Assembly: GCA_963844035.1 (NCBI GenBank)
Contig: CAWJMT010000003.1
Location: 160,001 to 224,000, forward strand
Origin: an uncultured Gemmatimonadales bacterium
GTDB lineage: Bacteria; Gemmatimonadota; Gemmatimonadetes; Gemmatimonadales; GWC2-71-9
Reading direction: 5' to 3'
Length of the DNA stretch: 64,000 nucleotides
Shown here: positions 4,296 to 38,229 of the stretch, piece by piece
Position numbering within the stretch: the stretch's first letter is position 1
Layout: every line of letters starts with the position of its first letter
The notes under the pieces: generated by a model
What the model was told of the DNA's origin: nothing
Seen by the model: the letters and a program-made list of their open reading frames with translations, nothing else
The model's database searches: none
Translations under genes and position numbers: made by a program

Positions 4296-4942
4296 AGGCT
4301 CGCGACGTCGCTCGCCGGATGGCGTTGTGCTGCCGGCAGCTGGCGGCGCGGGGATTGATTGCCGGCCAGGACGGGAACCTGTCCGTGCGACTCTCCGCCA
4401 CCCGGGTGCTCGTCACCCCGCGCGGACTCATCAAAGGGCTGCTCACGGCGTCCGACATGGTGGAAGTCGACCTGTCGGGTCGCAAGCTGGGTGGCCGCCG
4501 CAAGCCCACGACTGAATTGGACTTACACCTGCGATTCCTGAGACGTCGCCCCGACGTGGGCGCCGTCGTCCACGCGCACCCGCCCACGGCGACGGGATTT
4601 GCCGTGGCCGGAATGGGCTTTGAAAAATTCGTCCTTCCCGAGATTATCTTGTTATTCGGCCAGGTACCGCTTGTCCCTTATGGGACACCGGGGACTCCGG
4701 AGTTGGGTGATCGGGTGGAGCCCTTCATCGACGGGCACGACGGCCTGCTGCTCGCCAACCACGGCGCGGTGACCGTCGGACCTACGCTGGACGCGGCGTG
4801 GATCCGGATGGAGAGTCTGGAGCACGCGGCGCGCATTCTTTTCACCGCTCGCGCCCTGGGACGGGTGACCGAGCTCACGAACGACGCTGCGGCGCGCCTC
4901 GAAGCGAGCCGCGCGCGGGCACAACGGGAGCCGGATGCCTAA
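4292..4942 (+). CDS. Class II aldolase/adducin family protein
   Basis: GQDGNLSVR, PTTELDLH, VVHAHPP, LLLANHGAVT. Confidence 0.9.
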   Translation: MKARDVARRMALCCRQLAARGLIAGQDGNLSVRLSATRVLVTPRGLIKGLLTASDMVEVDLSGRKLGGRRKPTTELDLHLRFLRRRPDVGAVVHAHPPTATGFAVAGMGFEKFVLPEIILLFGQVPLVPYGTPGTPELGDRVEPFIDGHDGLLLANHGAVTVGPTLDAAWIRMESLEHAARILFTARALGRVTELTNDAAARLEASRARAQREPDA

Positions 4943-5709
4943 AGGGTCGTCGAAAAGCACCGCCGACATCGAGCGCCTGCTCGAGGAACGGCGGCAGTAC
5001 GAGGCCTGGATCGCGCGCCTATCGGCCGCCGATGACGCCACGCCCGCCAACGTGCGGGAGCGCGTCAAGGCGGACTACGAGGCGCGGCTGCGGGCGGTAC
5101 TGGAAGAGCTCACGTCCCACGCCGAGAGCGCCCGCCAGACGATCGACCAGAAACAGCACTTCCGGCTCGAAGTCAAAAAGCGGGAGCGCCTCGCCGCCGA
5201 GAAGGTGGCGGAGATGGAGCTGCGCCACTCGGTGGGCGAGTACGACGAGGTGACGTGGAACCAGGTGCACACGGACGCGATGGCGGAGCTGGTGACGCTG
5301 CGCGAAGAGCTGCAGGCGGTCGAGGGGGATATCGCCAAGCTGCTCGAGCTGGACAATCTCGTGCGCTCGGGGCCGAAAGCCGCCGTCGGTCAATTCCGGG
5401 AAATTCCGGACCACGGCCAAACCCAAAGAAACGCTCGACGAGCTGGCATTCATCAAGTCGGTCACCGACGACGACAAGAGCAACACGCCCTCACCCAAGC
5501 GCGCGAGCGGGGCCCAGTACCAGCCGAACGTTCCGATGACCGCGCCGACGAAGCCGACGCCCCCGGCGGTGAACCCTGCGCTCCCGACCCCACCCGCGGA
5601 CGAGGATGTGGAAGATCCCCGTCCCCTGAAGTGCAGGGACTGCGGAACGATGAACTTGCCGACGGAGTGGTACTGCGAGCAGTGCGGGGCCGAGCTCGCG
5701 GCGGTGTAA
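4935..5709 (+). CDS. Coiled-coil protein with C-terminal C4 zinc ribbon (frameshift near 5400)
   Basis: Helical charged N-half; shifted frame continues DELAFIKSV...LKCRDCGTMNLPTEWYCEQCGAELAAV-TAA. Confidence 0.8.
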
Positions 5710-5712
5710 CGG

Positions 5713-5973
5713 TTACTTCTTCGCGGCGGCCTTCTTGACCAGGGCGGCGAGCCGCGACTTGTGACGCGCCGCGTTGTTGGGATGGATCAGTCCCTTGCGG
5801 GCTGCCCGGTCGAGGAGCTGCACCGCCTGCGCGTAGGCTTCGACTGCCGCGGTGCCCTCGACTGCGCGGACGCGCTTCACGGCGTTGCGCAGCTCGGAGC
5901 GCTGGCCCCGGTTGCGGATGTTGTGGGCGCGCGACTGCCGCAACGCCTTTTTCGCGGATTTGATGCGGGGCAC
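5713..5973 (-). CDS. rpsT: 30S ribosomal protein S20
   Basis: MPRIKSAKKALRQS...KGLIHPNNAARHKSRL. Confidence 0.97.
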   Translation of the reverse strand: MPRIKSAKKALRQSRAHNIRNRGQRSELRNAVKRVRAVEGTAAVEAYAQAVQLLDRAARKGLIHPNNAARHKSRLAALVKKAAAKK

Positions 5974-6128: not shown

Positions 6129-6779
6129 GTGCTGCTGTTCTCCGTTGTGGCCCACGAATACGCGCACGCTGAGGCCGCCTACCGGCAAGGCGACGATACC
6201 GCCCATCTCCTTGGGCGGCTGACTTTGAACCCCCTGAAGCACATCGACCCGGTCATGAGCCTCATCGTGCCGTTCCTGCTGTGGCGGCTTGGGGCGCCGG
6301 TGTTCGGGGCGGCCCGGCCGGTGCCGGTGAATCCCCTGAAATACCGCAACTTCCGCCGCGGCGACATCATCGTGTCGCTGGCGGGAATTGCGACGAACTT
6401 GGGGCTCTTCGTGGTGTCCGCCGCCGTATTCGCGGCCGCCGGCCTTGCGGCACAGCTGGTCCCGGCGCTCAGCCCCTCGTTTGAGATCCTGCAGCGCATG
6501 CTGTACTACGGGATGTATCTCAATCTCATCCTGGCATTCTTCAACCTGATTCCAATTCCGCCGCTCGATGGCAGTCACGTCTTCTATCATCTGCTGCCGC
6601 CGGGCGCCGGCCTCAGATATCGCCAGCTCCAGGCGCTGGGCTTTCTCCCCATCCTGGTCGTGGCGTGGCTTTTCCCCGGGATGCTGCGCGTGCTGCTCTG
6701 GCCCGCGCTCCATCTGATGGGGGCCGGCTGGCGGCTCGTGGGCGGCTTCGCGATCTCACCGGCGGTGATTCCCACGTGA
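6129..6779 (+). CDS. Site-2 protease (M50) family metalloprotease; true start may be slightly upstream
   Basis: HEYAH, RLTLNPLKH, FNLIPIPPLDG. Confidence 0.93.
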   Translation: MLLFSVVAHEYAHAEAAYRQGDDTAHLLGRLTLNPLKHIDPVMSLIVPFLLWRLGAPVFGAARPVPVNPLKYRNFRRGDIIVSLAGIATNLGLFVVSAAVFAAAGLAAQLVPALSPSFEILQRMLYYGMYLNLILAFFNLIPIPPLDGSHVFYHLLPPGAGLRYRQLQALGFLPILVVAWLFPGMLRVLLWPALHLMGAGWRLVGGFAISPAVIPT

Positions 6780-7513
6780 CCACCTCGATCCCGATCGTGC
6801 AGGAAGGCGGCGGCTTCGTCGTCGAGCTGGAGCAATTCTCCGGCCCGCTCGACCTGCTGCTGCATCTGATCCGCGAAGACGAGGTCGACATCACCGACCT
6901 CCCGATCGCCAAGATCGCGGATCAGTTCCTGGCGGTGATCGACGAGCTGGGTCTGAACCAGGCGTCCGACTACCTCGAAATGGCCGCCCGGTTGCTGCGC
7001 ATCAAAGCCCAGATGCTGCTGCCGCGGCGCCTGGGTGACGACGACTGGGAGGACCCGCGCTCCGAGCTGGTGCGCCGCCTGCTCGAATACCAGCAGATCC
7101 GCGAGCTGGTCGACTGGCTGGCGAACGCGGCGGACCGGCGCGCCGAGCAGTTCGGCCGTGGGTTTGCGCCGCCCCCGGAGGCCGCGCCGGAGGCTCCGCT
7201 CGTGATCGAATTGAACGAGCTGCTCGCCGCAGCGGAGCGGGTGATCGCGCTGATACCGGAGCCGGTGCTGCACCGCGTCGTCCCGCGCCCGCTCGATGTC
7301 GAAGGCGCGACGGAGCGGATTCAGCAGCTGCTGGTCAGGCGCGAAGCCTTCGGCTGGCTGGACATCGTGGGTACGCGCGCGGGGATCGTCGACATTCTGT
7401 CGGCGTTCATCGCGCTCCTCGAACTGGCGCGGCGCGGTGTGCTCCGCGTGGAGCAACCCGAGCCGTTCGCCTCGATTGTGATCAGGCGTGAGTCCCCTCG
7501 CGAAGCTGTTTGA
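6776..7513 (+). CDS. scpA: Segregation/condensation protein A
   Basis: FSGPLDLLLHLI, MAARLLRIKAQMLLP, DPRSELVRRLLEY, FIALLEL. Confidence 0.94.
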   Translation: MTTSIPIVQEGGGFVVELEQFSGPLDLLLHLIREDEVDITDLPIAKIADQFLAVIDELGLNQASDYLEMAARLLRIKAQMLLPRRLGDDDWEDPRSELVRRLLEYQQIRELVDWLANAADRRAEQFGRGFAPPPEAAPEAPLVIELNELLAAAERVIALIPEPVLHRVVPRPLDVEGATERIQQLLVRREAFGWLDIVGTRAGIVDILSAFIALLELARRGVLRVEQPEPFASIVIRRESPREAV

Positions 7514-8036
7514 AGCGGCCCTCTTCGCGGCATCCCGCTCGCTGACCGCCGACGAGCTGGCCGCACTCGATCCGTCCGCCGGGGAAGCCGCGGTGCAAGG
7601 CGCACTCGACGAGCTGCGCCAGGCGTACGCGACGGACGATCACGGCGTGGAGCTGGTGGAAATCGCCCAGGGGTGGCAGTTCCTGACCAGGCGCGAGTAC
7701 GCCGAGACCATCGAGCGCGCCCGCATCGCGCTGCGCACCCGCCGCCTGTCCCCGGCGGCGCTCGAGACCCTGGCGATCGTTGCCTACCGGCAGCCGGTAG
7801 GCCGCCTCGAGATCGAAGAGATCCGTGGCGTCGATTCCGGCGCGGTGCTCGACAAGCTGCTCGAGCGCGGGCTGGTCGAAGTCGCCACGCGCGGGGAAGG
7901 GCTGGGCCGCCCGCTCCTGTACGGGACAACGCCGCACCTCCTCGAGGTGCTCGGGCTCAAGGATCTGGACCAGCTGCCGCGGTTGGAGGAGCTGGCGGTG
8001 GCGCTGCGTCCCCCGGCGCCGGCCGAGCCCGAATGA
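7488..8036 (+). CDS. scpB: SMC-Scp complex subunit ScpB
   Basis: LSPAALETLAIVAYRQP, IEEIRGV, GRPLLYGTT. Confidence 0.95.
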   Translation: MSPLAKLFEAALFAASRSLTADELAALDPSAGEAAVQGALDELRQAYATDDHGVELVEIAQGWQFLTRREYAETIERARIALRTRRLSPAALETLAIVAYRQPVGRLEIEEIRGVDSGAVLDKLLERGLVEVATRGEGLGRPLLYGTTPHLLEVLGLKDLDQLPRLEELAVALRPPAPAEPE

Positions 8037-8920
8037 CCTTGATGCGCCTGCAGCGCGCGCTGGCGCGCGCGGGCGTGACGTCGCGGCGCAAGGCGGAGGA
8101 TCTGATTCGCGCCGGCCGGGTGCGGGTGGACGGCGCCGTGGCCACGATCGGCACGAGCGTCGATCCGGTGCGCCAGAAGGTGACCGTGGACGGGCAGGCG
8201 GTGCGGCCGGTCGCGACCACATGGCTGGCATTGAACAAGCCCGTGGGGTACGTCGTGAGCCGCAGCGACCCCGAGGGCCGGCAGACGGTGTACGACCTGC
8301 TCCCCAAGCTGCCCGGCCTCACGTACGTTGGACGCTTGGACATGATGACGTCTGGCTTGCTCCTCCTCACCACCGACGGGACGGCGGCGCACCGGTTGAC
8401 GCACCCGCGCTACGCGGTGCAGCGCACCTACTGGCTGCGGGCCCACGGTCTGGGGACGCGGGCGGTGCAGGCGGCGCTGGCTCAGCCGATCGAGATCGAC
8501 GGGCGCGCGGTGCGACCGACGAACTTCCGCGTGCGCACGATGGGGCGCGGCGTGGAAATCGAGTTGACGCTCGCCGAAGGACGGCACCGGATCGTGCGCC
8601 GTCTGGCGGAAGCGTTGGGGTTGAAGGTCGAGTGGCTGCACCGCGTGTCGTATGGCCCGGTCCGGCTTGGTCGTCTCGCCGAGGGTCGCAACCGTCCCCT
8701 CACGCCCGCCGAGATCCGGGCGATCGATCGCCTGGAGGGGGAGGGGAGCGGGCGGGGAGGGGGGCAAGAAGGCGGCGCCCGCCACCGGACGGCGCGCCCG
8801 GGCCAGGCGTTGACGCGCGATGACAACGCAAACGACCGGCATGGAGCGCGCCCTCGGGGCGATCGGCACCACGTTCCGGATGACCCGGCTGTATCCGCCG
8901 ATCCATCCCGCGCTGGTTGA
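8033..8920 (+). CDS. rluB: rRNA pseudouridine synthase, RluB/RsuA family (true stop probably 8823 after a frameshift in the G-rich tail)
   Basis: S4 domain RLQRALARAGVTSRRKAE, LNKPVG, VGRLD..TSGLLLLTTDG, LAEGR. Confidence 0.85.
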   Translation: MTLMRLQRALARAGVTSRRKAEDLIRAGRVRVDGAVATIGTSVDPVRQKVTVDGQAVRPVATTWLALNKPVGYVVSRSDPEGRQTVYDLLPKLPGLTYVGRLDMMTSGLLLLTTDGTAAHRLTHPRYAVQRTYWLRAHGLGTRAVQAALAQPIEIDGRAVRPTNFRVRTMGRGVEIELTLAEGRHRIVRRLAEALGLKVEWLHRVSYGPVRLGRLAEGRNRPLTPAEIRAIDRLEGEGSGRGGGQEGGARHRTARPGQALTRDDNANDRHGARPRGDRHHVPDDPAVSADPSRAG

Positions 8921-10362
8921 AGCGGTGCGCCAGGTAGGCGAAACGCTGCCGGCGCTTGGGGAGCTCGGCACCGTCGAGTGGAAGGTCGGCGCCACCGGTC
9001 TGCACTGGCAGGGTCATCACCTGCTGCCACGGAACACGCAGGTGGCGGAGCTCGCCGGATTGCTGTTCGCCCGCGGCGTCCGCTCCATTCAGGCGAGCCC
9101 GGGCGTTGTCGCGGACGACATCCTCGCGCTGTTCGGAGTGGCGACGGGCACCATCCCGCCGGACCACCGCAGCCTCGGGAAGCTCACCCTCAGCACCGGA
9201 CGGCGCACCCAGCGGCTCTCGAGGCCGACACCGACGCCCGGCGCGGGGCACACCGGCGATCGAGATCGACCCCGGCCCGCCCGCGGTGGCGGCTGCCCCA
9301 GTCCCGCCTCCCGCCGCCCCGCCGGTTCCCGAGTTCGGGCACACGACGACGGCGGAGTTTCAACCGGACACCGTTCCGGTCGACGTGGCGGTGCGGCGCA
9401 CGCTCGCGGTATTCAGTTCCGCGACCACGGCTGCGGAGCGCGCCGATGCCGTCGCCCGGCTGCAGGCGCTCACGCCGACCGTGCTCGCGCAGCGCGACAT
9501 CGGCCTGGTGGCCGAGGCCGTGGCGGCGCTCGATCAGCTGCTCGGGCGCGTGGACGATCCGGCGCTCGCGGAGGCGATCGGGACTGCCGCGGGGGCGCTG
9601 GCGGACAAGGCGCTCCTGGCCCGCATGGTGGCGCGACTCGGCGAAGCGCGGGTGACCGGCGCGGAGCGGGACGTGCTCCTGTCGGCACTCGGTGCGCTGG
9701 CGTCGGTGTCGGTCGGGGTGGTGTTGAACGCCTACCTCGCGGCGCGCGCCGACTTGAGAGAGCCGTATCGTGCGGTGATTCGGCGGGCAGGCGATCGCGC
9801 GTTGGAGCCGCTCCAGGGGCGGTTGGCGGATTCCGATCCGACGGTCGCCGCGGCGGCCGCCGAGCTGGTGGGCTTGAGCGGCGCGCCGCAGGTGATCGCG
9901 CTGCTGGTCCCGTTGCTCCGCCACGAGTCGGATTTCGTGCGCGAAGCGGCGGTGACGGGCCTGGCGGAAATCGGCGGACGGGAGATCAGCCGTCCCGTCA
10001 TGCCGGCCCTGAAGGACCCGAGCGTCGGTGTGCGGTCGGCCGCGGTGCGGGCGATCGCGGTGGCGGGTGACCTCGGCGCGACGACCGTCCTGGCGCGCCG
10101 CCTGGAGCAGGAAGACGACGAGGGGGTCATCGCGGACCTGCTTCGTGCCATCGGTCGGCTGGGGGCACCGGACGCGCTGGAAACCCTGGCGAAGTACGCC
10201 GAGCCGGGCGGGATGCTCAAGCGGCGCAGTCCAACGGTACGGGCGGCGGCGATCGAAGGCCTGGCCAGGATCACCACGCGCGAAGCGCGGGGCTTGCTGG
10301 AGCTGTACACCCATGACAAGGAGCCGACCGTGCGACGCGCGGCCGAGACGGCAATACGATGA
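8820..10362 (+). CDS. HEAT-repeat protein with N-terminal LYPxxHP domain (frameshift near 9245)
   Basis: N-term RLYPPIHP in ORF 8820; HEAT repeats (LRHESDFVREAAVTGL, LKDPSVGVRSAAVRAI, HDKEPTVRRAA) in ORF 8956..10362. Confidence 0.85.
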
Positions 10363-11348
10363 CGACACAAAAGGCGGCCCCGGCCCCGGCTCCGGCTGGC
10401 GACGCGGCGCTCACGCGCACGATCACGCGGGAGGTGGCGAAGCGGGTGGTCGGCCAGGAGGTCATGGTCGAGCGCCTGCTGATCGGCCTGCTGACCGGCG
10501 GGCACGTCCTGCTCGAGGGCGTCCCCGGCCTAGCCAAAACGCTGGCTGTGCGCACCGTGGCGGAGGCGCTCCGGATCTCGTTCTCGAGGATCCAGTTCAC
10601 GCCGGATCTGCTGCCGGCGGACGTGATCGGCACCATGGTCTTCGATCAGCGCTCGCAGGAGTTCTACGCGAAGAAAGGCCCGCTGTTCGCCAACCTCGTG
10701 CTGGCCGACGAAATCAACCGCGCTCCCGCCAAGGTCCAGGCGGCGCTGCTCGAGGCGATGCAGGAGAAGCAGGTGACGCTCGGCGGCGAGACGTTTTTTC
10801 TGGGCGAGCCGTTTCTCGTCCTGGCTACACAGAACCCGATCGAGCAGGAAGGGACGTATCCCCTCCCGGAGGCGCAGCTCGACCGCTTCATGCTCAAGGT
10901 GCGCGTCGGGTATCCCAGTCGCGATGCCGAGAAGGAGATCGTGGCCCGCATGGCGGGCGGACGCCCGATCGAGGTGCAGCGCATCGCCGAAGCGGGGGAC
11001 ATCCTCGCCGCCCGTAGCGCCATCGCCGAGCTCTTTATGGACCAGAAGGTGGTCGACTACATCGTGGATGTGGTGCGCGCCACCCGCGAGCCGCAGGCGG
11101 TCGGACTTCCGGAGTTGAAGCCCCTCATCGCCTTTGGTGCGTCGCCCCGCGCGTCGATCTACCTGGCGCAGGCGTCGCGGGCGCATGCCTACCTGCGCGG
11201 CCGCTCGTACGTGGTGCCGGAGGACGTGAAGGCGATGGCGTTCGATATTCTGCGCCACCGCGTACTGCTCACCTTCGAGGCCGAGGCGGAGGACATGGAC
11301 GCCGACCGCGTCATCGCCAAGATTCTCGAGGCCGTGCGCGTGCCGTGA
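10359..11348 (+). CDS. moxR: MoxR-family AAA+ ATPase
   Basis: LLEGVPGLAKT, RIQFTPDLLPAD, LADEINRAPAKVQ, TQNPIEQEGTYPLPEAQLDRF. Confidence 0.95.
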   Translation: MTTQKAAPAPAPAGDAALTRTITREVAKRVVGQEVMVERLLIGLLTGGHVLLEGVPGLAKTLAVRTVAEALRISFSRIQFTPDLLPADVIGTMVFDQRSQEFYAKKGPLFANLVLADEINRAPAKVQAALLEAMQEKQVTLGGETFFLGEPFLVLATQNPIEQEGTYPLPEAQLDRFMLKVRVGYPSRDAEKEIVARMAGGRPIEVQRIAEAGDILAARSAIAELFMDQKVVDYIVDVVRATREPQAVGLPELKPLIAFGASPRASIYLAQASRAHAYLRGRSYVVPEDVKAMAFDILRHRVLLTFEAEAEDMDADRVIAKILEAVRVP

Positions 11349-12286
11349 AGTACGCGGGAGAAGAACGCCGGCGTGGCCCCGTATCGCCGGCCCGCACCCG
11401 CCGGCGCACCGTCACCCCCGACGTGCTCCGGCAGGTCAAAGGGATCGAGCTTCGCACCCGCACCCTCGTCAACTCCCTGTTCACCGGCGACTACCGCTCG
11501 GTGTTCCGTGGACAGGGCATCGAGTTTGCCGAGGTACGGGAGTACCAGCACGGCGACGACTTCCGCGCCATCGACTGGAACGTATCCGCGCGGATGGGAC
11601 ATCCGTTCGTGAAGACCTACGTCGAAGAGCGCGAGCTCACCCTCCTGTTGCTCGTGGACCAGTCGGGGTCGCTGCACGTCGGCCGTCGCGCCACCAAGGC
11701 GGCGCTCGCCGTCGAGGTGGCGGCCGTGCTCGCGCTGGCCTCGGCCCGCCACAACGACCGGGTCGGCGCGCTGATGTTCTCGGACACGGTGGAATTCGTG
11801 GTGCGCCCCGCCAAAGGGCGGCCGCACGCGCTCCGGGTCATCCGCGACTTGCTCGCCTTTTCGCCGCGTGGCCGCGGGACCAACCTGGCGGAGGCCCTGC
11901 GCTACGCCACGCGCCTCTTGCGGCACCGCTCGATCGTGGCCGTGTTGTCGGACTTCCGAGCCGAGGGATGGGAGGAGCCGCTCGCGCGGCTGGCCGCGCG
12001 CCATGATGTGGTGGCGGTGACGGTGGACGACGAGCGCGAGCTCGACCTGCCGGACGCCGGCTGGGTGGACCTCCAGGATGCCGAGACGGGCGGCCGTGTG
12101 CTGCTCGATTCGAGTCACGGACCCACTCGCACGCGGTTCCGCGTCGCTGCCGAACGCCAGCTGCAGGAGCGCACGCGCAAGCTGATCCAGGCGGGCGTGG
12201 ATCGCGTGGCGCTCCAGACGCACGTGCCGTACGCCGTTCCCCTGCGCCGGGCGTTCGCCGAGCGGGCCCGCAGGCGCAAGCGATGA
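11345..12286 (+). CDS. DUF58 domain protein
   Basis: GQGIEFAEVREYQHGDDFRAIDWNVSAR, VKTYVEERE, DQSGS. Confidence 0.93.
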   Translation: MKYAGEERRRGPVSPARTRRRTVTPDVLRQVKGIELRTRTLVNSLFTGDYRSVFRGQGIEFAEVREYQHGDDFRAIDWNVSARMGHPFVKTYVEERELTLLLLVDQSGSLHVGRRATKAALAVEVAAVLALASARHNDRVGALMFSDTVEFVVRPAKGRPHALRVIRDLLAFSPRGRGTNLAEALRYATRLLRHRSIVAVLSDFRAEGWEEPLARLAARHDVVAVTVDDERELDLPDAGWVDLQDAETGGRVLLDSSHGPTRTRFRVAAERQLQERTRKLIQAGVDRVALQTHVPYAVPLRRAFAERARRRKR

Positions 12287-13144
12287 GGGCCGCGCGGCGC
12301 CGCGCGGCGTGGGGCGCCGCGCTGAGCGTCGTGGCATTTGCCGCGTTCCCCGGACCGGCGGCCGGACAATGGACCGTCGATCCACCCCGCCCGACGGTGG
12401 GTGACACGGTGTGGTTGGCGCGCGAAGTGACGCTACCCGCCGGATGGCGTGTGCGACCCGGGAAGCTCGACGAGGGCGACGCGATCGGATCGCTGGGCGA
12501 TGCGGCGGTGCTGTGGACACCCGGCGGGTGGCTGATTCGGTACCCCGTGGTCGCCTGGACTACCGGCGCGCATACGATCGTCCTGCCTCCTGTGTGGCGC
12601 CTGGCGCCCGACGGCCGCGCGGACTCCCTCCCGGGCGGTGCGGCTCGGTTCGACGTGCGGAGTGTGATCCCCGACAGCGTGACGCAGCCGCAGCCGCGCG
12701 GGGCCATCGCTCCGTTGCGGCCCAGCCGTCGGCACCCCGGCGTACTGTTGCTCGCGATCGCGGCCTCGGCGGCGCTGCTTGCGGGAGCGATGGCGTGGCG
12801 TCGCCGCCCAGGGCGCGCTCCCGTCCCGCCACCTCAGGTTCCACTAGAACGTGAAGTGCCCGATGCGCGCTGGCTCGCTGCCGGCGAGCCCAAAGCCGTG
12901 GCGGCCCGCGCCGCGCGCCACCTGCGAACGGCGATCGCGCGTGCGCACCCCGATGCGTTCGTGGCCCTCAGCACGACCGAGTGTCTGGCCGCGCTCAAGC
13001 ACACAGATTCCCGATATCCCCCTCCGCCAGCTCACCGAGGTCCTGACGCAGCTCGAGCGGGTCGGGTTCGCGTCGGCCCAGGGGGCGGAGGCGGCGGTGC
13101 TGGCCGAGCGCGCCCGGGCGCTGGCACGGGAGCTCGCGCCGTGA
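12283..13144 (+). CDS. Exported membrane-anchored protein of Bat cluster (frameshift near 13010)
   Basis: Signal peptide, beta-rich domain, TM helix followed by WRRR; lies between DUF58 and VWA genes with overlapping start/stop. Confidence 0.7.
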
Positions 13145-14122
13145 GTTTCGCCCGGCCGTTTCTTCTCTTGTTGCTGGCGGCAATCCCCGCGTGGTGGTGG
13201 CTGCGCGCGCGCCGCCTCGCGCGACTGTCCGGGACGACCATGGGAGATTTACGGCCGGCGGCCGGGGCCGGGGATCGCTTGTGGGTCGCGCGCCTCCCGC
13301 TGATGCTGCGCAGCGTCTGCCTGGCGGCGTGGATCATCGCGGCGGCGGGCCTGCGGCTGGGCGCGGCGCGGGCGGAAGTGCGCACCGAGGGGATTTCGAT
13401 CGTGCTCAGTGTGGACGTGTCCAGCAGCATGCTCGCGGAGGACTTCGCGCCGTCCAACCGCATCGACGTGGCAAAACAGACGGCGATCGAGTTCGTGCGG
13501 GCGCGCAACTCGGATCGCATCGGGCGTGGTGGCGTTCGCGGCGCAGGCTCTCACCCAGGTCCCGATCACGACCGACTATCCGGTTCTCGAGGCCGCGCTG
13601 CAGGGTCTCCGGATCGGGATGCTCGAGGACGGCACGGCGATCGGAACGGGGATTGCGACCGCGGCGAATCGGCTGCGCCACGCGCCGGGGAAGACCAAGG
13701 TCCTGATTCTGCTGACCGACGGCGTGAACAACCGCGGCATCGTCGACCCGCGCACGGCCGCGCAGGCGGCGGCCGCGTTCGGCATCCGCATCTATGCGAT
13801 CGGTGTCGGCACGCGGGGTGAAGCGCCGGTGCCGACCGGGGTGGGGCCGGAGGGGATGCGGTATCAGTCGCTCCCCGTCGAGATCGACGAGCCGCTGTTG
13901 ACGGAGATCGCGACGATGACCGGAGGGCGCTACTTCCGCGCCACCGACTCGCAGTCGCTGAAGCAGATCTTCGGGGAGATCGACCGGCTCGAGAAGAGCA
14001 CCGTCCAGCGCGTTATCTACCGTCGGTTCGACGAGGCGTTTCGCTGGCCGCTGGGTCTCGGGCTGCTGGTGCTCGCTCTCGAGATCGTGCTGTCGGCGAC
14101 CTTCGCGGTGCGGGTGCCGTGA
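13141..14122 (+). CDS. batA: BatA-like VWA domain protein (frameshift near 13522)
   Basis: SFARP N-term TM, DVSSSM MIDAS, GTAIG, ILLTDG, IYAIGVG, TGGRYFRA. Confidence 0.88.
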
Positions 14123-30264: not shown

Positions 30265-30272
30265 TTGAGGCG

Positions 30273-30305
30273 CGCCCCGGGATTGCTCCCGGGGCGCCTT
30301 CTTTT
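30273..30305 (+). terminator. Rho-independent terminator of groESL
   Basis: CGCCCCGGGA-TTGC-TCCCGGGGCG stem followed by CCTTCTTTT. Confidence 0.85.
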
Positions 30306-30330
30306 GGTGCATAAGCATTAGCTTTCCCCC

Positions 30331-32430
30331 GTGGCCGTTCCCCCTTCGCCACCCAATCGTCCCGAGCGCGCGGCGCTGTCGCGCGATCTCGCGGATTTTC
30401 TCATCGAACTTTCCATCGCGCTCCACAAGCACGCGCTCTACCCACCGGATCATCCGTCTCTCGATCCGGCCGCGGGGGCGGTGGTCGACCGCGCCGAACT
30501 CCTGCTCACCGACCGCACCACCCTGGCACTAGGCGTCGCGCGCAACCAGCTGGTGATCGAAGGGGTCGCCACCGATCCCAAGCATCCGGTGCTGCGCGAG
30601 CTGGCTGACCGGTTGCACCGCCACCATCTCGGCGCGGTGACGTTCAGCCGGGGCGTGGGGGTCGCCGAGGTGCGCGATGCGCTGCGCACGCTCGCCATGG
30701 AAGCGGATCGAACCGGACAGCCGCTTGGCCTGGGGCCGCTCGAGGCACTGCGTCGCTGGGAGCACGTGCGCCTTCATCCGTTGACCTACGAACGGCTCGA
30801 GCTCGTCGACGAGGCCCCGGCAGCGGACGTGGCCACCGGCACCACGCGGAACCGCGCCGCCCAACTGTGGGTGGGACTCGCCCGCGCGGCCCTCGCCACC
30901 GAAGGGAGCGATGAGGCTCCTGCGTCCAACGACCCCGCGGTGATTGCGCGGGCGATCGACGAGCGCGTCCCGCATTCCGCCGGCGCGTACGATCAGGCCA
31001 TCGTCGGGTACATGCTGCAAATCGCCGAAGAGCTCAAGGCGGCGGGGAGCAATGAAGCGGTCGCGCTGCGGCGCCGGATGTCGCGTCTGGTGCGCGGCCT
31101 GAAGCCCCAGACGCTGCAGCGGCTGGTGGCGATGGGCGGCGACTTTGCGCAGCGGCACAAATTCGTGGCCGATGCGACCGACGGGATGGCGCTTGATGCC
31201 GTGCTCGAGATCGTGCAGGCGGCGGCCACCACCTCCAACCAGACCATTTCCCATGCGCTCGTGCGCATGCTCTCGAAGTTTGCCGCTCACGCCGAAGCGG
31301 GCTCGATCGAAGCGCGTCCCCAGGCTGACGCCGCCCTGCGGCAGCAGGTGCGCCAGCTGCTCGAGGGGTGGAGCCTCAAGGACCCCAATCCCGGTGCCTA
31401 CGGTGCGGCCTTGCAGCGCATGGCGAAGGCCACGCCCCTCTTCGCGGTGCCCGCCGAGGAGGCCTACCCGACGGAGCCCGAGCGGATCGCGGCCATGGGT
31501 CTCGAGCTCGATATCGACGCCGCCCCCGTGCTCGAAGCGGTAGACCGGGTCGTGGAGGAAGGGCGCGTGTTGCGCCTGCTCGAAGTCCTGGAGGAGATGC
31601 CGACGACGAGCATGGCCGCCGACCGCATGTGGGAGCGCGTGGCGACGCCCGGCGTCGTGCGCCTCCTGGCAACGCAGGAGCCGCCGGACTTCAAGACGCT
31701 TGACCGTTTGGTATCGCGGGTCGGTCCTGGCGCGGGCGAGCCCCTGCTCGAGGCGTTGGCGATCGCCGAGTCGCGCGGCGCGCGCCGGGGCTTCCTCGGC
31801 CTGCTGGTGCGCCTCGGGCCGGCAATATCGCCCCTGGTCATCGGCCGCCTGCAGGACGAGCGTTGGTACGTCACGCGCAATTTGCTGGCGTTGCTCGAGG
31901 AGCTTGGAGACTTGCCTCCGACCTTCGATCCCACCCCGTGGCTCCTGCATGCCGACGCGCGCGTGCGGTTGCAGGCGTTAAAGCTGCAGGTCAAGCGGCC
32001 TGCGGAACACGACAGCGCGCTCATTACGGCCCTGCAGGATGCCGATCAAAAGGTGGTGCGCCTGGCGCTTACCACGGTGCACCAGGGCTGTCCGGGGTCG
32101 GTGGTCCCGCACGTGGCGCGCTGGGCGGCAGACGGCACGGCGCCGATCGATCTGCGCGTGCTCGCGATTCGTGCCTTGGGGGGATCAAAAGCGCCGTCGG
32201 CGCGCGACGCGCTCCTCGACCTCACACACGGTGGGCGGACGCTGCTCGGCCGGGAGAAATTGCCGCCCAAGTCTCCCATGCTCATCGCCGCATTGCGGGC
32301 CCTCGCGGCCGGTTGGGCCACCAACCCGGCGGCGCGGCGCGTGCTGGCCCGCGCCGGCGCGTCGTCGGACCCGGATATCCGCTCGGCGATCACCTCCCCT
32401 CGCACACCGCCTCCGAGCGCTCATGAGTGA
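30331..32430 (+). CDS. Large helical HEAT-repeat protein with N-terminal LYPxxHP domain
   Basis: HALYPPDHP; C-terminal HEAT repeats LQDERWYVTRNLL, LLHADARVRLQAL, LQDADQKVVRLAL. Confidence 0.85.
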   Translation: MAVPPSPPNRPERAALSRDLADFLIELSIALHKHALYPPDHPSLDPAAGAVVDRAELLLTDRTTLALGVARNQLVIEGVATDPKHPVLRELADRLHRHHLGAVTFSRGVGVAEVRDALRTLAMEADRTGQPLGLGPLEALRRWEHVRLHPLTYERLELVDEAPAADVATGTTRNRAAQLWVGLARAALATEGSDEAPASNDPAVIARAIDERVPHSAGAYDQAIVGYMLQIAEELKAAGSNEAVALRRRMSRLVRGLKPQTLQRLVAMGGDFAQRHKFVADATDGMALDAVLEIVQAAATTSNQTISHALVRMLSKFAAHAEAGSIEARPQADAALRQQVRQLLEGWSLKDPNPGAYGAALQRMAKATPLFAVPAEEAYPTEPERIAAMGLELDIDAAPVLEAVDRVVEEGRVLRLLEVLEEMPTTSMAADRMWERVATPGVVRLLATQEPPDFKTLDRLVSRVGPGAGEPLLEALAIAESRGARRGFLGLLVRLGPAISPLVIGRLQDERWYVTRNLLALLEELGDLPPTFDPTPWLLHADARVRLQALKLQVKRPAEHDSALITALQDADQKVVRLALTTVHQGCPGSVVPHVARWAADGTAPIDLRVLAIRALGGSKAPSARDALLDLTHGGRTLLGREKLPPKSPMLIAALRALAAGWATNPAARRVLARAGASSDPDIRSAITSPRTPPPSAHE

Positions 32431-33640
32431 ACCGGCTGAATTCCTGACGGCGTTTGCCCAGGCGCTCGCCACCATGACCCTCTACGCCGAGGGCCATCCC
32501 GCGCGCGAGCGCGCGATCGACCTGGCGTATCGCGAGCTGCAGGATCTGCAGGCGGACACGCCCCATCCGCTGTTCACGTTTTTGGGCGACGAGATCGTGT
32601 TCGGCCGCCTCCCGCTCCGCGATCTCCGGGCGTGGGACTGGTCGCAGCGCCTGGCGCAGGCCGGGATTCAGCGTCTCGAGTTCGCCGACAACGTGGGACG
32701 CGAGGAGTTCGAGGGGTTTCTCGACGAGCTCCTGGCCCGCCTGACGCTGTCGGCCATCGATACGTCCGAGCAGAACCAGATGCGGCGGTCGAGTATCCGC
32801 TACGGGGCGGTCGGTGTGCGGGGGGATACCGAGTCCGAGCAGCAGCAGCCGCTCCAGACCGCCACGATCAGCTACTCCCTCGCGGAAGAAACCGACACGA
32901 TGCGCTGGATGCATCACGAGGTGAAGGCCACCGGATTGCTGCCACTCGCCGAGGCCGAGGCCGTCGTGCGCTCGTTGTCGGTCGCCATGCACTCCGGACG
33001 CCAGCTCATGATCCCGCTGCTGCAGCTGAAGGAGTTCGATCAGTACACGACCACCCATTCGCTCAACGTATCCGTGCTCGCGATGGCCTTGAGCGAATTC
33101 CTCGGGTTGGGCGCGAAGGATACGCGGGCGTTCGGAATCGCCGGATTGTTACACGATCTCGGGAAGATCCGTATCCCCCTCGACGTGCTCACCAAGCCTG
33201 GCCGGTTCACGGAACAGGAGCGGCAGCTGATGAACCAGCATCCCTCCGACGGCGCCCGCATCATCCTCGGCGCCGCGGAGCGGCTCGACCTTGCGGCGGT
33301 GGTGGCGTACGAGCATCACATCATGCTGAACGGCGACGGGTACCCCGCGATGCGATTCCGGCGGGACTGCCATTTCGGGAGCAAGCTGGTGCACGTGTGC
33401 GATGTATACGACGCCCTGAGGACCACGCGCCCGTACCGCGATGCCTGGCCGCAGGAGCGCACCGTGGCGTATCTCGAAGGGCGGAGCGGCTTGGAGTTCG
33501 ATGCCGAGATCGTCTCCGCCTTTACGCGAATGATGCGGGAGCGGGAACCGCAGTTGGCAGTCATGCGCGACGAGAATGCGCCCTTAGAGGGGGCGCAGGA
33601 GCCGTCTCCTCCTTCCCCGGCACCGGTACCCCCGGCGTGA
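32423..33640 (+). CDS. HD-GYP cyclic-dinucleotide phosphodiesterase with N-terminal LYAxxHP domain
   Basis: YTTTHSLNV, LLHDLGK, EHHIMLNGDGYP, CDVYDAL, RPYR. Confidence 0.92.
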   Translation: MSEPAEFLTAFAQALATMTLYAEGHPARERAIDLAYRELQDLQADTPHPLFTFLGDEIVFGRLPLRDLRAWDWSQRLAQAGIQRLEFADNVGREEFEGFLDELLARLTLSAIDTSEQNQMRRSSIRYGAVGVRGDTESEQQQPLQTATISYSLAEETDTMRWMHHEVKATGLLPLAEAEAVVRSLSVAMHSGRQLMIPLLQLKEFDQYTTTHSLNVSVLAMALSEFLGLGAKDTRAFGIAGLLHDLGKIRIPLDVLTKPGRFTEQERQLMNQHPSDGARIILGAAERLDLAAVVAYEHHIMLNGDGYPAMRFRRDCHFGSKLVHVCDVYDALRTTRPYRDAWPQERTVAYLEGRSGLEFDAEIVSAFTRMMREREPQLAVMRDENAPLEGAQEPSPPSPAPVPPA

Positions 33641-33699: not shown

Positions 33700-34092
33700 G
33701 TGGCGCGTTGGTCGTTCTGGATCATCTGCTTCTTATCGCTTACCGGTGGCCTGGTGGCCCAGACCACGGTCAAGCCCGGCCGCGTCCGTCTCGAAGGGGA
33801 TTGGCAGGCGAAAACCGACGACGGCATCCGGCACATCAGTGTCCGCGCCGACAGCTCGGCGCAGTTCGGCGACCAGGTGGCGCGCTGGCGGGTGGTCGGG
33901 GACAGCCTGTGGCTGACGCTGGGGGACGGCGTGTGGATGGTGTACGCCTACGCGGTCAAACAGGACAAACTGACGATCTCGGGGGGCGACCTCAAGAAAC
34001 CGGCGACGCTGCGTCGCGTGGGACCGGCCAGCGCGCGGCCCGACACCCTGACCATTCCGGAAGCACCGCCCGATACCGCGCGCGCCTGGTGA
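33700..34092 (+). CDS. Small secreted beta-rich protein
   Basis: GGAGG RBS, signal peptide, LEGDWQ strand motif. Confidence 0.7.
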   Translation: MARWSFWIICFLSLTGGLVAQTTVKPGRVRLEGDWQAKTDDGIRHISVRADSSAQFGDQVARWRVVGDSLWLTLGDGVWMVYAYAVKQDKLTISGGDLKKPATLRRVGPASARPDTLTIPEAPPDTARAW

Positions 34093-34099
34093 TGCGCCC

Positions 34100-35983
34100 C
34101 TAGCTCTTCATCTCCCGTACGCTCGCGACGCGCCAGCCGATGGGCGTCTTGATGAACCGCATCTCCAGGGACGCACGCTCTTCCCGCTGAGCGCCGCCCG
34201 CCGCCGGCAAGAACCGGTACTCGGCGCGCACCGTCGCGCCGGCATTGCTCCCCTGCACGCGGATCGTGTCGGTCGCGAAGGTGGCTTCGAGCTTCGACGC
34301 CCGCCGGAAGAAACTCCGCCAGCTCGCCGCATCCCGCTCGGTCATCGAAGGAAACAACTGCTTCAGGTTGGTCACGCGCTCGCTGCCCACGGCGCGCGCG
34401 AGGTCGAGGAGCAGCACGCCGATCGCGGCGTGCGGGGCGTCCGGCTGCGGGCTTGGGGGTGCGACACCGGCGGCAACCCCGACGCGCTCCGCGTCCTGGG
34501 CGGCGGACGCCGCGAGCGGATAGTCCATCTCGGCATAGAGCGATTCCGCCCGCGCAAGCGACGTGGCGGCGCGGGTCGCCGCGTCGAGCGGCGTGGCGAG
34601 GCCTTTGACCACCGGCGTCGCGCGCGCGATCGCCAGCTCCGCCTCCTTGCGGAGCCGTTCGACCTCCGCTCGCGCCTTGCGGTACTGGGCCACGGCGCTG
34701 AGATAGGCGCCGGATGCACGGCTGTGGTCGCCACTGCGGATCCCCTGTTCGGCGGTCAGGAGCATGGTTTCCGCCAACACCCCGGCGGGCACGTTGTTCT
34801 TGATGGCGCCGACGCGTTCGCTGCGCTGCCGCGCTTTGAGTGCGGAGTCGCGCAACGCGACGAGCGTGCCGCTCAGGCCTTCGGGCAGAGGCGCGCCCAC
34901 CAGCTCGTTCAGCGTGGTCGGAGCGACGGGCGCTGGCTGGACCACGGGGTCCGCGGCCGGGGCGGGTGGGAGCGGCGCGGGTACCGCGGGCTGTGCCGTC
35001 TTCTGTGACAGGTAGATCAGTCCCACGACGCCCACCACCAGACCGGAAACGGCAGCGACCCGCCACCGCGGCGGCGTGCGCGTGACGAGTCGCAGCACGG
35101 GCGCGGGGAGCGGCATCCAGCGCGGGTTCAGGCGCTGCGTCGCATCCGTCGCGCCCGACAAGGCGGAGCGAATTCCGAGCAGCACCTGCTGCATCTGGCG
35201 GGCGCTGTGGTACCGATCCTCCGGCACTTTGCTGAGCGCCTTGGAGACCACGCGCTCGAGCGCTGCCGGGATCGACGGCGCCATGGTGCGGAGCGGTTTC
35301 GGCTCGGTCGTCAACACCTGGTAGAGCACGCCATGCACCGTGTCCCCCTCGAACGGCTTGTGGTAGGTCAGCAGCTCGTACAGCAGGCATCCCACGGAGA
35401 ACAAATCGGTGGCGGCCGTGATCGGTCCGTTGGTCACCTGTTCAGGCGCCATGTAGTTCGGCGTGCCCACGATCGCGCCCGAGCCCGTTGCATCGGCCGA
35501 CTGCAGCCGCGCGATGCCGAAGTCCATGATCTTCACCCGTCCATCGGCGGCGATGCGCACGTTGGACGGCTTGATATCGCGGTGAATGACGCCGCGTTCG
35601 TGCGCGTAGGTGAGCCCCTCGAGCACTTCGATCACCATGTCGAGTTTGCGCTCCAGGTCCAGCGGCTCCATGCTGGAGATCATGTCACTCAGGTCGCGTC
35701 CCTCTACCAGCTCCATGGCGATGTAGAGCTGGCCTTCGGCTTCGCCCAGGTCGTACAGCGTGACGAGGTTGGGATGCTGGAGCACGCCGGCAGCGCGCGC
35801 TTCGCGGAGGAAGCGCTCCCGCGCGTCAGTCGTCTTGCCGACAGGGGTGGGGAGAAGCTTTAGTGCGACGTAACGGCGGATGACTGTGTCGTATGCCTTC
35901 CACACGACTCCCATCGCACCTTCGCCGATGAGGTCGTGCAATTCGAACTTGCTGACGCGGCGATACCGTTCCGTCTTGGTCAC
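34100..35983 (-). CDS. Hanks-type Ser/Thr kinase with TM and extracytoplasmic domain
   Basis: IGEGAMGVV, VALK, HRDIKPSN, DFGIAR, GTPNYMAPE, TM VAAVSGLVVGVVGLIYL. Confidence 0.95.
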   Translation of the reverse strand: MTKTERYRRVSKFELHDLIGEGAMGVVWKAYDTVIRRYVALKLLPTPVGKTTDARERFLREARAAGVLQHPNLVTLYDLGEAEGQLYIAMELVEGRDLSDMISSMEPLDLERKLDMVIEVLEGLTYAHERGVIHRDIKPSNVRIAADGRVKIMDFGIARLQSADATGSGAIVGTPNYMAPEQVTNGPITAATDLFSVGCLLYELLTYHKPFEGDTVHGVLYQVLTTEPKPLRTMAPSIPAALERVVSKALSKVPEDRYHSARQMQQVLLGIRSALSGATDATQRLNPRWMPLPAPVLRLVTRTPPRWRVAAVSGLVVGVVGLIYLSQKTAQPAVPAPLPPAPAADPVVQPAPVAPTTLNELVGAPLPEGLSGTLVALRDSALKARQRSERVGAIKNNVPAGVLAETMLLTAEQGIRSGDHSRASGAYLSAVAQYRKARAEVERLRKEAELAIARATPVVKGLATPLDAATRAATSLARAESLYAEMDYPLAASAAQDAERVGVAAGVAPPSPQPDAPHAAIGVLLLDLARAVGSERVTNLKQLFPSMTERDAASWRSFFRRASKLEATFATDTIRVQGSNAGATVRAEYRFLPAAGGAQREERASLEMRFIKTPIGWRVASVREMKS

Positions 35984-36052: not shown

Positions 36053-37222
36053 TCAGCGGGTGGCCCAGTCGTACACACGTCCAAGAGCGGCGCTGGTCGG
36101 CGGGTCCACCGCCACGTCGCGGCGCGGGAGTACGCGCCCGGCGACGGTAAGAAACCCCTCCCGGGTGACCCGCGTCGTCGCCGTTCCTCCCCAGGCGAAC
36201 GGTGCGACGTACTTCGGGGGCCGCACGGTATCGAACACATTGGCGCCCGTCCCGACCACGGTGCCGGTGTCGAGCAGCGTCCCGGTCGCGGTCTTGGCGT
36301 GGTCCCCGATGAGGCTGCCGAGGTTCGTCAGGCCGGTCTGGATCGTCGCGCTGCCGACGCGGAGGCGCACCGGGCCGTAGGTGTTCTTGAGGTTGGACGT
36401 GATGGTGCCGGCGCCCAGGTTTGCCCAGCGTCCCACGACGGAGTGGCCGACGAACCCGTCATGCGCCTTGTTGGCGAACCCGAGGAATACACACGCGGTC
36501 ATTTCCCCCCGGATGGTGCAGCGCGGACCGAAGGCCGACGCGCCGATCCGGCCGCCGAGTAGCCTGGTACTCGGCCCCGCCCAGAGCGGTCCTTCGAGTC
36601 GCGTTCCCGCCATGACCTCGACGCCGGCCTCGAGCACGATCGCGCCCGCGCGCGCGTCGAACACCACGCCCGGCTCGACCGCGGCCCCGCGCAGCCACAC
36701 CGCGGCCGGGTCGCCCAACACGGTGCTGCCTCGGGGCACGGGATCACCGTCGCCGCAGCGCGCGGCCGCGTCCTCTCCGAGCAGGTGAGGCAGCGTGCGC
36801 ACCAGATCGTACACGCCGCGCAGCACCACGCCGCGCACGTCGACGCCCGAGGCGCCTTGCTGCGGCCCCTCCCAGGTCATCCCGGCGCCCACGCCCCAGC
36901 CCACCGTGACCCCGTCGCAGGTGAGCCGGAACGCGCCCGCAGGAAACGCCGGCGCGGCGCCCAGCGGGACGAAGGTGGACGATCCGATGAGCGCCGGCCC
37001 GGTGACGGGGTGCCGGTCCGTCACGGATGGCACCCCCGGCTCGATGAATCCGGCGAGGTGGGGCAGGGCGAAGATCTCGCGGGTCTCCGCGCCGAGGAAG
37101 CGCTCCCATCGTTCGCGCACGAGGTACGCGCCCGCGCGCAGCTCCGACAACGGACGGGCCCCGGCGAACGGCGCCCAGGCGGGCGTTGCCTCCGGGTCCA
37201 GCAGGTAGAGGGCGTGGGTCAC
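36053..37222 (-). CDS. GlmU-like putative sugar nucleotidyltransferase with left-handed beta-helix
   Basis: PFAGARPLSELRAG, ANKAHDGFVGHSVVGRWANLGAGT..SNLKNTY hexapeptide region. Confidence 0.85.
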   Translation of the reverse strand: MTHALYLLDPEATPAWAPFAGARPLSELRAGAYLVRERWERFLGAETREIFALPHLAGFIEPGVPSVTDRHPVTGPALIGSSTFVPLGAAPAFPAGAFRLTCDGVTVGWGVGAGMTWEGPQQGASGVDVRGVVLRGVYDLVRTLPHLLGEDAAARCGDGDPVPRGSTVLGDPAAVWLRGAAVEPGVVFDARAGAIVLEAGVEVMAGTRLEGPLWAGPSTRLLGGRIGASAFGPRCTIRGEMTACVFLGFANKAHDGFVGHSVVGRWANLGAGTITSNLKNTYGPVRLRVGSATIQTGLTNLGSLIGDHAKTATGTLLDTGTVVGTGANVFDTVRPPKYVAPFAWGGTATTRVTREGFLTVAGRVLPRRDVAVDPPTSAALGRVYDWATR

Positions 37223-38229
37223 AGGTCTTGCACGAGCTGTTTCAGTCGATCGGCGCGGCCGGTCGGCATGACCAGGGTGTGCCCGTTGGCCCGCACGACC
37301 ACCATGTCCTCGACTCCGGTGACGGCGAGGTGCTCGCTCTCCGACCAGATGACCGATCGCTTGACGTCCTCGCCCACCGTCACATGGCCGACGATCACGT
37401 TGCCGCGTGCATCGGTGCGCCGGATGCGCAGCAGCGCATCCCAGGAGCCGATGTCGTCCCAGCGGAATCCGCCGGCGACGACGGCCAACCGCTTGGTCCG
37501 CTCGAGTACCGCGACGTCCACCGCCGCCGGCCGTACCGCACCGAAGAATCCGGGAATGTCGCCCGCGGCGAGCGCGGGCCACCCCGATTTGAGCTCGCGG
37601 GCGTACGCGCCGGCTTCGCCTAGAAAGCGCGCCACCCCCCAGGCGAATAGCCCGGTATTCCATAATGCCCCCCGCTGCCGCAACAGGGCCGCGCGCGCCG
37701 CCCGCGGCTTCTCGACGAAGCGACGCACGGTGCGCGCGGTGCCGAGCGGCTTGCCGGGAACGATGTACCCGTACCCCGACTCATTGCGGGTGGGTTTCAC
37801 GCCGACGGTGACGAGGACGTCGTATTCCTCCGCCACGCCCAGCGCCGTGCGGGCGGCGCTGCGGAAGGCGCGGTCGTCGCCCACGGCCCAGTCCGCGTGG
37901 AGCGAGAGCATGTGCGCGCCGGGGTCCTGGTGCGAAATCCAGTCGGCGGCCCAGACGAGGGCGGGCGCCGTGGAGGCCGCGCGCGGCTCGCCGAAGATCT
38001 GCGCCCGCGGCACTTGAGGGAGCAACGCAGCGATCTGATCGGCCAGGGACGGGGAGGTCAGGATCACGATCCGCTCCGGTGGCACGAGGCCGTCCAGGCG
38101 GTTCACTGCCTGAACGAGCAGCGGCCGGTCTCCGGCGAGCGGCAGCAGTTGTTTCGGCCGGTCGGGCAGGGACAGCGGCCAGAACCGCGTGCCGCTCCCC
38201 CCCGCGAGGATCGCTGCCCAGACGCTCAC
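37219..38229 (-). CDS. manC: Mannose-1-phosphate guanylyltransferase
   Basis: ILAGGSGTRFWPLS..PKQ, GEP...TAPA, GYGYI, FVEKP, WNTG, WDDIGSW. Confidence 0.9.
   Translation of the reverse strand: MSVWAAILAGGSGTRFWPLSLPDRPKQLLPLAGDRPLLVQAVNRLDGLVPPERIVILTSPSLADQIAALLPQVPRAQIFGEPRAASTAPALVWAADWISHQDPGAHMLSLHADWAVGDDRAFRSAARTALGVAEEYDVLVTVGVKPTRNESGYGYIVPGKPLGTARTVRRFVEKPRAARAALLRQRGALWNTGLFAWGVARFLGEAGAYARELKSGWPALAAGDIPGFFGAVRPAAVDVAVLERTKRLAVVAGGFRWDDIGSWDALLRIRRTDARGNVIVGHVTVGEDVKRSVIWSESEHLAVTGVEDMVVVRANGHTLVMPTGRADRLKQLVQDL

Follow-up and report, generated by a model that had tools for sequence, protein, structure and literature searches.

Overlapping genes encode a HEAT-repeat protein and a predicted HD-GYP phosphodiesterase that share an uncatalogued N-terminal domain in Gemmatimonadota and Acidobacteriota

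Introduction

Control of HD-GYP enzymes usually lies with a sensor that is part of the same polypeptide chain. Here we analyze a pair of overlapping genes in a 64,000-nucleotide stretch of DNA from an uncultured Gemmatimonadales bacterium (assembly GCA_963844035.1, contig CAWJMT010000003.1, positions 160,001 to 224,000; this whole stretch is called the window, and positions count from its first nucleotide). The first (gene 1) encodes a HEAT-repeat protein and the second (gene 2) a predicted HD-GYP phosphodiesterase, and both products begin with the same kind of domain. The catalytic domain of gene 2 is of a known kind; the N-terminal domain, the partner gene and a fusion of the domain to predicted GGDEF cyclases are uncatalogued.

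The catalytic domain resembles those of the cyclic di-GMP (c-di-GMP) phosphodiesterases of the Tyr/Phe (binuclear) HD-GYP subfamily: a profile comparison with PmGH (PDB ID: 4MCW) gives an E-value of 5.7e-37, and the gene 2 model superposes on that structure with VIA Z 19.4 and a root-mean-square deviation (rmsd) of 3.5 over 190 aligned residues. Gene 2 has in common with PmGH the seven shared ligands and the KPG, GYP and RxxR motifs, and departs from it in carrying Tyr at the position of E185 and HHI instead of HHE. It also differs in having an uncatalogued input domain in place of GAF or REC, together with a dedicated HEAT partner gene. A similar plan of small N-terminal domain, helical linker and HD-GYP domain is found in the Bd1817 family (DUF3391-HD-GYP; PF11871; PDB ID: 3TM8; PA4108 and VC2497), and residues 80-308 of 3TM8, comprising the linker and catalytic part, superpose on residues 143-374 of the gene 2 model (Z 19.3, rmsd 4.0, 222 aligned). 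The N-terminal domain of Bd1817 has been proposed to bind proteins. DUF3391, however, has four strands at its start and is found almost exclusively with HD-GYP, whereas the domain studied here begins with two helices and is also present in HEAT proteins and cyclases. PF11871 matched neither window protein nor any of 71 N-terminal domain sequences, and passed its cut-off in 0 of 61 genomes; sub-threshold matches in 3 of the 61 lay mainly over the linker part of the PF11871 model.

Local c-di-GMP modules of co-localized cyclase, phosphodiesterase and effector have been proposed, in which a source and a sink are joined by protein contacts (PMC10211494). The arrangement that we propose below would have the same outline and add a HEAT scaffold and a shared docking domain, neither of which is mentioned in the abstract of that article. 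A literature search, with most subscription papers outside its reach, returned no description of an HD-GYP/HEAT pairing or of the domain. The word HEAT is absent from the main text of the HD-GYP architecture survey of Galperin and Chou (bioRxiv 2021.11.05.467447), whose image tables and supplements could list the architecture. Assignment to a known anti-phage defense system was rejected, as PADLOC returned only short Cas3-HD and mad8 motif matches.

Results

The two genes, their domains and a third gene of the window that carries the same domain are laid out as follows, with the supporting evidence in brackets.

30331..32430, + strand: gene 1, 699 residues, with the shared N-terminal domain, a helical middle domain and HEAT repeats (Pfam/profile, model)
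30382..30780, + strand: first copy of the shared uncatalogued N-terminal domain, gene 1 residues ~18-150, helix-YPxxHP-helix-strands-helix-strand-helices-strand (profiles, model)
30838..31428, + strand: conserved all-helical middle region of gene 1, without family match, having a WxLxDPNP motif in addition to an invariant Trp and an invariant Lys (model, alignment)
31477..32388, + strand: HEAT-repeat solenoid of gene 1, residues ~383-686 (Pfam, model, Foldseek)
32230..32262, + strand: basic hairpin with hydrophobic tip, gene 1 residues 634-644, a candidate membrane anchor (model, alignment)
32423..33640, + strand: gene 2, a predicted HD-GYP phosphodiesterase of 405 residues (profiles, model)
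32429..32806, + strand: second copy of the shared N-terminal domain, gene 2 residues ~3-128, with a W-x-W invariant in the enzyme subfamily (profiles, model, alignment)
32882..32989, + strand: two linker helices preceding the catalytic domain of gene 2, resembling the Bd1817 linker (model, superposition on 3TM8)
33035..33553, + strand: HD-GYP catalytic domain, with D206, Y208, H212, H244/D245, K248, KPG, H273, H298/H299/I300, GYP, D327, D330 and R336-x-x-R339 (PmGH alignment)
8820..10362, + strand: third copy, an orphan gene for the N-terminal domain plus HEAT, split by a frameshift, with a basic/hydrophobic loop at its end (hidden Markov model, Pfam, relatives)

Gene 2 starts at the ATG at 32423 and not at the mechanical open reading frame start at 32039, and its first 8 bases overlap the end of gene 1 including the stop codon (ATGAGTGA). 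The HEAT_2 match of gene 1 falls short of the cut-off (E 0.0011, as against 2.6e-29 for the 8820 gene); its model consists in this region of tandem helical hairpins, which match HEAT solenoids such as PP2A-A in a Foldseek search (E 2e-5).

That the N-termini of these three proteins can be aligned was part of the original prediction, and the motifs quoted in it are all present. Direct pairwise alignment is weak (z = 2.3 for HEAT/HD-GYP, 4.2 for HEAT/8820 and 0.3 for HD-GYP/8820, against 2000 shuffles), so that alignment by eye is not proof of homology; it is the family profiles that bear the claim out. The profiles of the HEAT and HD-GYP N-termini align in hhalign with a probability of 97.6 and an E-value of 3.1e-12 over 127 columns (97.9 and 3.5e-13 in a second run). 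A hidden Markov model (HMM) built from HEAT N-termini alone recovers, among the 31,871 open reading frames read in all six frames of the genome, both the HD-GYP N-terminus (E 3.4e-7) and that of the 8820 gene (E 6.1e-8). Seven subfamilies of the domain can be told apart, and all 21 pairs of their profiles align with E-values from 3e-39 to 4e-4. By these profiles the ~130-residue N-terminal domains of gene 1 and gene 2 are homologous. Both AlphaFold models (mean predicted local distance difference test scores of 85.5 and 84.9) give the domain the same order of elements: a pair of long helices connected through the YPxxHP loop comes first, followed by a hairpin, a helix and a strand, then by one long helix with one or two short ones, and last by a strand.

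The domain matches no Pfam or NCBIfam family, whether the query was the window proteins or sets of 36, 35 and 41 family members. A sequence search of the PDB with its profile reached a best E-value of 2, and in fold searches with the full-length models the match lists were dominated by the HD and HEAT parts, with no clear row over the N-terminal domain. The ESM Atlas returned unnamed clusters (best 0.90), the best named match being DUF3391 at 0.75, which we treat as a lead only. At 50% identity, 4,962 clusters match the HEAT-type profile; two N-terminal domain queries had no match on plasmids, and phage matches cover the catalytic part only. The HP of the LY[P/A]xxHP signature given to the domain is invariant or nearly so within the families of the window pair (the His is kept in 95 of 95 in both proteins); other subfamilies have NP, NA, SK or SE at this position, and too much weight had been placed on HP. 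A Tyr is the sole invariant residue of the broad alignment across subfamilies, each of which has invariant residues of its own, such as W-x-W in the enzyme copy. In a quick-search tree of 103 N-terminal domains the deep branches are open, and no order of events was drawn from it.

The pair is conserved as a unit. Both N-terminal domains are present in 35 of 41 related genomes. At loci selected by the HEAT protein, the enzyme gene lies directly downstream on the same strand in 38 of 39 cases, the remaining locus being a 1.6-kb contig; the spacing ranges from -28 to +42, and 22 of the 38 show a 4-base overlap. Conversely, a gene for the domain plus HEAT stands in front of the enzyme at all 60 loci selected by the latter, which were chosen from 150 listed matches for spread and contig room. 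Among 80 GTDB loci, the partner is whole in 68 and represented by its C-terminal part in 8; upstream sequence is lacking in 3, and in 1 the partner lies just beyond the distance cut. These three sets overlap and consist of kin, and were neither summed nor tested statistically. In Gemmatimonadota the enzyme copy is present in 177 of 301 genomes, a tally that takes in one unpublished genome on which nothing claimed here depends. With a broader profile the domain was detected in 54 of 151 Acidobacteriota genomes, in which 16 of 20 loci taken from the better matches contain this pair, two of these loci in duplicate. Every complete pair examined retains the domain in both proteins. Other neighbors vary (groEL, for example, is present at 14 of 39 loci), which identifies the pair itself as the conserved unit. 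The original prediction had named absent homology or differing folds, a known family, and an unconserved pair as outcomes that would count against it; what we found was homology with one order of elements, no curated family, and adjacency that holds across Gemmatimonadota and Acidobacteriota.

The active site was scored in 95 orthologs against the numbering of PmGH, with residue roles taken from PMC4159591 and bioRxiv 2021.11.05.467447. The metal-binding residues and GYP are intact, as had been claimed for the window protein: each of the seven shared ligands (H, HD, H, HH, D) is kept in 91-95 of the 95, with the equivalents of H189, D222, H250, H276, H277 and G284-Y285-P286 in all 95, H221 in 94 and D305 in 91. 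Also kept are the equivalents of D183 (92), K225 (86), D308 (93) and R314 (94) and the KPG motif, while K317 is represented by Arg in 94. The HHI that replaces the usual HHE is real and was given too much weight as a peculiarity of this protein, being a trait of the whole family: the E278 equivalent is Ile, Val, Leu or Met, and Glu in 0 of 95. In Bd1817 this Glu is a backbone-bracing residue of the GYP loop and binds no metal. We therefore rejected HHI as the mark of a dead enzyme, the Glu being structural and not a ligand and the change being subfamily-wide. Across the family the R192 equivalent is Asn and that of I294 mostly Cys.

The position of E185 in PmGH is occupied by Tyr in 95 of 95, and not by the Glu or Asp of the trinuclear (E/D-T-G) subfamily. 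Tyr or Phe at this position characterizes a two-metal HD-GYP group that often stops at pGpG (PMC4159591; bioRxiv 2021.11.05.467447), which places the enzyme in the Y/F binuclear group. The guanine-reading pair R336/R339 is Arg/Arg in 94 of 95; RxY[K/R] has been associated with c-di-GMP and RxxQ/N with cyclic GMP-AMP (cGAMP) (Galperin and Chou, bioRxiv 2021.11.05.467447). The residues of the window enzyme thus point to c-di-GMP as its substrate, and judging from them it is likely active on that molecule.

The same genome has a second pair of this architecture, located between trpB and trpA (L070:5717-8829, G000:C12); trp genes flank 7 of 9 loci of this type. Its enzyme carries RxxQ, the cGAMP-type motif, and an additional C-terminal region. 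Among 18 Acidobacteriota enzymes, 8 have RxxR and 6 RxxQ, with 4 unparsed, and at the two duplicated Acidobacteriota loci (L270 and L273) the tandem pairs comprise one RxxR and one RxxQ enzyme each. The domain also occurs in a GGDEF-AAA_16-domain-domain-HEAT protein, whose gene is broken by a frameshift in this genome (L071:4769-9254, G000:C3, about 29 kb outside the window) and whole in relatives, at about 1,400 residues. We found 21 such relatives; 20 of them have two copies of the domain, and all 16 rows that could be parsed retain the GGDEF motif. Among the proteins examined, HEAT, HD-GYP and GGDEF-AAA-HEAT are the only full-length partners of the domain, which by sequence accompanies predicted enzymes for the synthesis as well as for the breakdown of cyclic dinucleotides. 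At one Acidobacteriota locus (L265:1091-9430), in a frameshifted assembly, genes for the cyclase, the domain plus HEAT and the domain plus HD-GYP follow one another on one strand. The genome as a whole has 19 GGDEF matches, 9 HD_5 matches and 1 EAL match.

The third copy in the window is, as predicted, a real gene for the N-terminal domain plus HEAT, and it is frameshifted in this assembly: the break falls between about 9248 and 9373, and two relatives have a single frame. Apparent frameshifts at 4935-5738, 8820-10362, 12283-14122 and 36053-37663 of the window suggest indel errors in the assembly; with other genes broken too, such an error is the likely cause of the split at 8820. Around the gene (6665-14122) lie, on one side, what we take from the translations to be scpA-scpB-rluB-like genes and, on the other, a presumed MoxR/DUF58/vWA cluster. 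Nine loci related to it have the scpAB-rluB flank in 4 cases and moxR in 2, and a link to MoxR-vWA conflict systems (PMC7159879) was rejected, given moxR at 2 of 9 and mention of neither HD-GYP nor the pairing in the accessible text of that article. A further variant (L283:2716-7923) is an open frame of 1,736 residues with an internal copy of the domain and C-terminal HEAT repeats, directly before a second gene for the domain plus HEAT; the fetched stretch contains no HD-GYP gene.

The HEAT protein ends with a conserved loop. The hairpin at residues 634-644 is the most basic segment of the family alignment (net charge +3.7, against -0.17 +/- 1.14 for all segments), and its pattern of basic residues with a hydrophobic or aromatic tip is found in 89 of 95 orthologs. 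The same loop is shared by the proteins of the second pair, the orphan and the cyclases, and recurs in Acidobacteriota: a basic and aromatic loop occurs in 81% of 16 other Gemmatimonadota paralogs, against a mean of 8% (maximum 62%) in other segments of the same region, and in 88% of 24 Acidobacteriota proteins, against 10% (maximum 71%). It combines hydrophobic and basic residues in the manner of the membrane-targeting sequences of MinD and MinE, short motifs that bind anionic lipids weakly (PMC6803595), although those are terminal amphipathic helices and the loop here is a hairpin located internally, with HEAT helices on either side. From this analogy a membrane role may be proposed, and we consider the chances about even that the loop is a membrane anchor. 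The genome encodes one further HEAT protein with the same terminal loop (G000:C36:147724-149517), whose N-terminus resembles a shortened form of the domain that lacks the YP loop and was not picked up by the domain HMMs.

Upstream of gene 1 lie groES and groEL, separated from it by one further feature.

30272..30307, + strand: terminator-like hairpin of 11 bp with a U tail, between groEL and gene 1 (sequence)

A functional tie of the pair to GroEL was rejected, as the terminator intervenes and groEL is present at 14 of 39 loci. Downstream (33700-35983), the pair is followed by a small beta protein that looks secreted and has no Pfam match, and by a Ser/Thr kinase encoded convergently; both are retained in close relatives only (9 and 6 of 39 loci, respectively).

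Discussion

A cyclic-dinucleotide signaling role for the pair, as originally predicted, is well supported by the sequences, and the two genes very likely form one functional unit. The homotypic docking that was proposed with it is something that we infer from the sharing of the domain, its tandem copies and the coupling of the genes. We suggest, with a probability of roughly 45%, that the pair constitutes a two-subunit local signaling unit in which a HEAT scaffold, held at the membrane, uses the shared domain to bind a c-di-GMP phosphodiesterase, with cyclases bearing the same domain and loop as the local source. Coupled translation would provide matched amounts of the HEAT protein and the enzyme, whose shared domains would pair with each other, as the tandem copies of the cyclases may do in cis. 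The loop of the HEAT protein would dip into the inner face of the membrane and position the complex; the enzyme, which has Tyr where PmGH has E185, would cut c-di-GMP mainly to pGpG and serve as a local sink, and the GGDEF-AAA-domain-HEAT cyclases, with the same domain and loop, would be the matching local source. That the HEAT protein and the enzyme form a physical complex is probable; that they touch domain to domain is a more tentative proposition, to which we give somewhat less than an even chance. Prediction of the complex (HEAT protein 15-686 with enzyme 1-132, 95-row alignments) scored 0.00 in both runs with the controls unfolded and counts neither way, and an underpowered covariation analysis (mutual information with average product correction, 164 pairs, effective 124) gave four intra-protein pairs at z > 5 and no inter-protein pair.

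Several observations weigh against this proposal. At the other 7 of the 8 cyclase loci fetched there is no pair beside the cyclase. The tandem copies of the cyclases are nearest to each other (E 3e-39) and not to either partner type, for which reason we rejected the idea that they are a fused heterodimer of HEAT type and enzyme type. Orphan genes for the domain plus HEAT exist without an enzyme (8820; L283). The changes at E278, R192 and I294 may mean that activity or specificity differs from that of the characterized enzymes. As for the loop, a cruder test that used no alignment set it apart less clearly (17 of 24 against 20 of 72) and did not pick up the protein of the window itself, single other segments reach 62-71% basic and aromatic, and a basic loop could bind nucleotide or nucleic acid rather than lipid.

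Domain sharing and gene coupling would be compatible, too, with sensing by each protein independently or with a leftover of duplication. On the first of these accounts the domain is an input that senses a ligand or protein, and each protein reads the same signal alone, the activity of the enzyme shifting and the HEAT protein relaying, so that docking is unneeded. HD-GYP and GGDEF enzymes normally have N-terminal input domains, and both the orphan copies and the subfamily-specific invariant residues, W-x-W among them, fit such a role; a single invariant Tyr across subfamilies offers little for a common ligand pocket, however, and overlapping gene ends are more typical of subunits. We regard this account as unlikely. 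Alternatively, the complex may form through the HEAT repeats or the helical middle region, which would clasp the catalytic domain or linker and act as a scaffold or in maturation of the metal center, the N-terminus being an old duplication or a means of oligomerization. The resemblance of the HEAT region to scaffold solenoids such as PP2A-A, the invariant residues of the middle region, a ladder of Arg, Tyr and Asn in the repeats marked by weak intra-protein covariation, and the family-wide loss of the loop-bracing Glu, which a partner could compensate, all agree with this. Retention of the domain in both proteins of all complete pairs examined and its doubling in the cyclase argue for a present function, and we hold this second account to be quite unlikely. 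It is improbable that the HD-GYP protein serves as a receptor for a nucleotide, or acts on a different dinucleotide, with the HEAT protein as its output: the altered E278, R192 and I294 equivalents and the RxxQ of the paralogous pair and of 6 of 18 Acidobacteriota enzymes would suit it, whereas the seven metal ligands, D183, K225, D308, KPG, GYP and RxxR are all kept in the family of the window pair.

If the two-subunit unit exists as we propose, a dedicated partner protein that has a domain in common with both enzyme and cyclase would represent a new means of placing and controlling cyclic-dinucleotide turnover. A common domain with neither a Pfam nor an NCBIfam model is invisible to annotation, and the key claims could be tested with two soluble proteins. 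A broader and rather unlikely extension is that the domain is a homotypic address module, comparable to the death fold, which builds membrane-anchored hubs where HEAT scaffolds recruit an ATPase-controlled diguanylate cyclase together with an HD-GYP enzyme of c-di-GMP or cGAMP type. If that were true, the Gemmatimonadota and Acidobacteriota would possess an undescribed, modular network for local signaling with two messengers.

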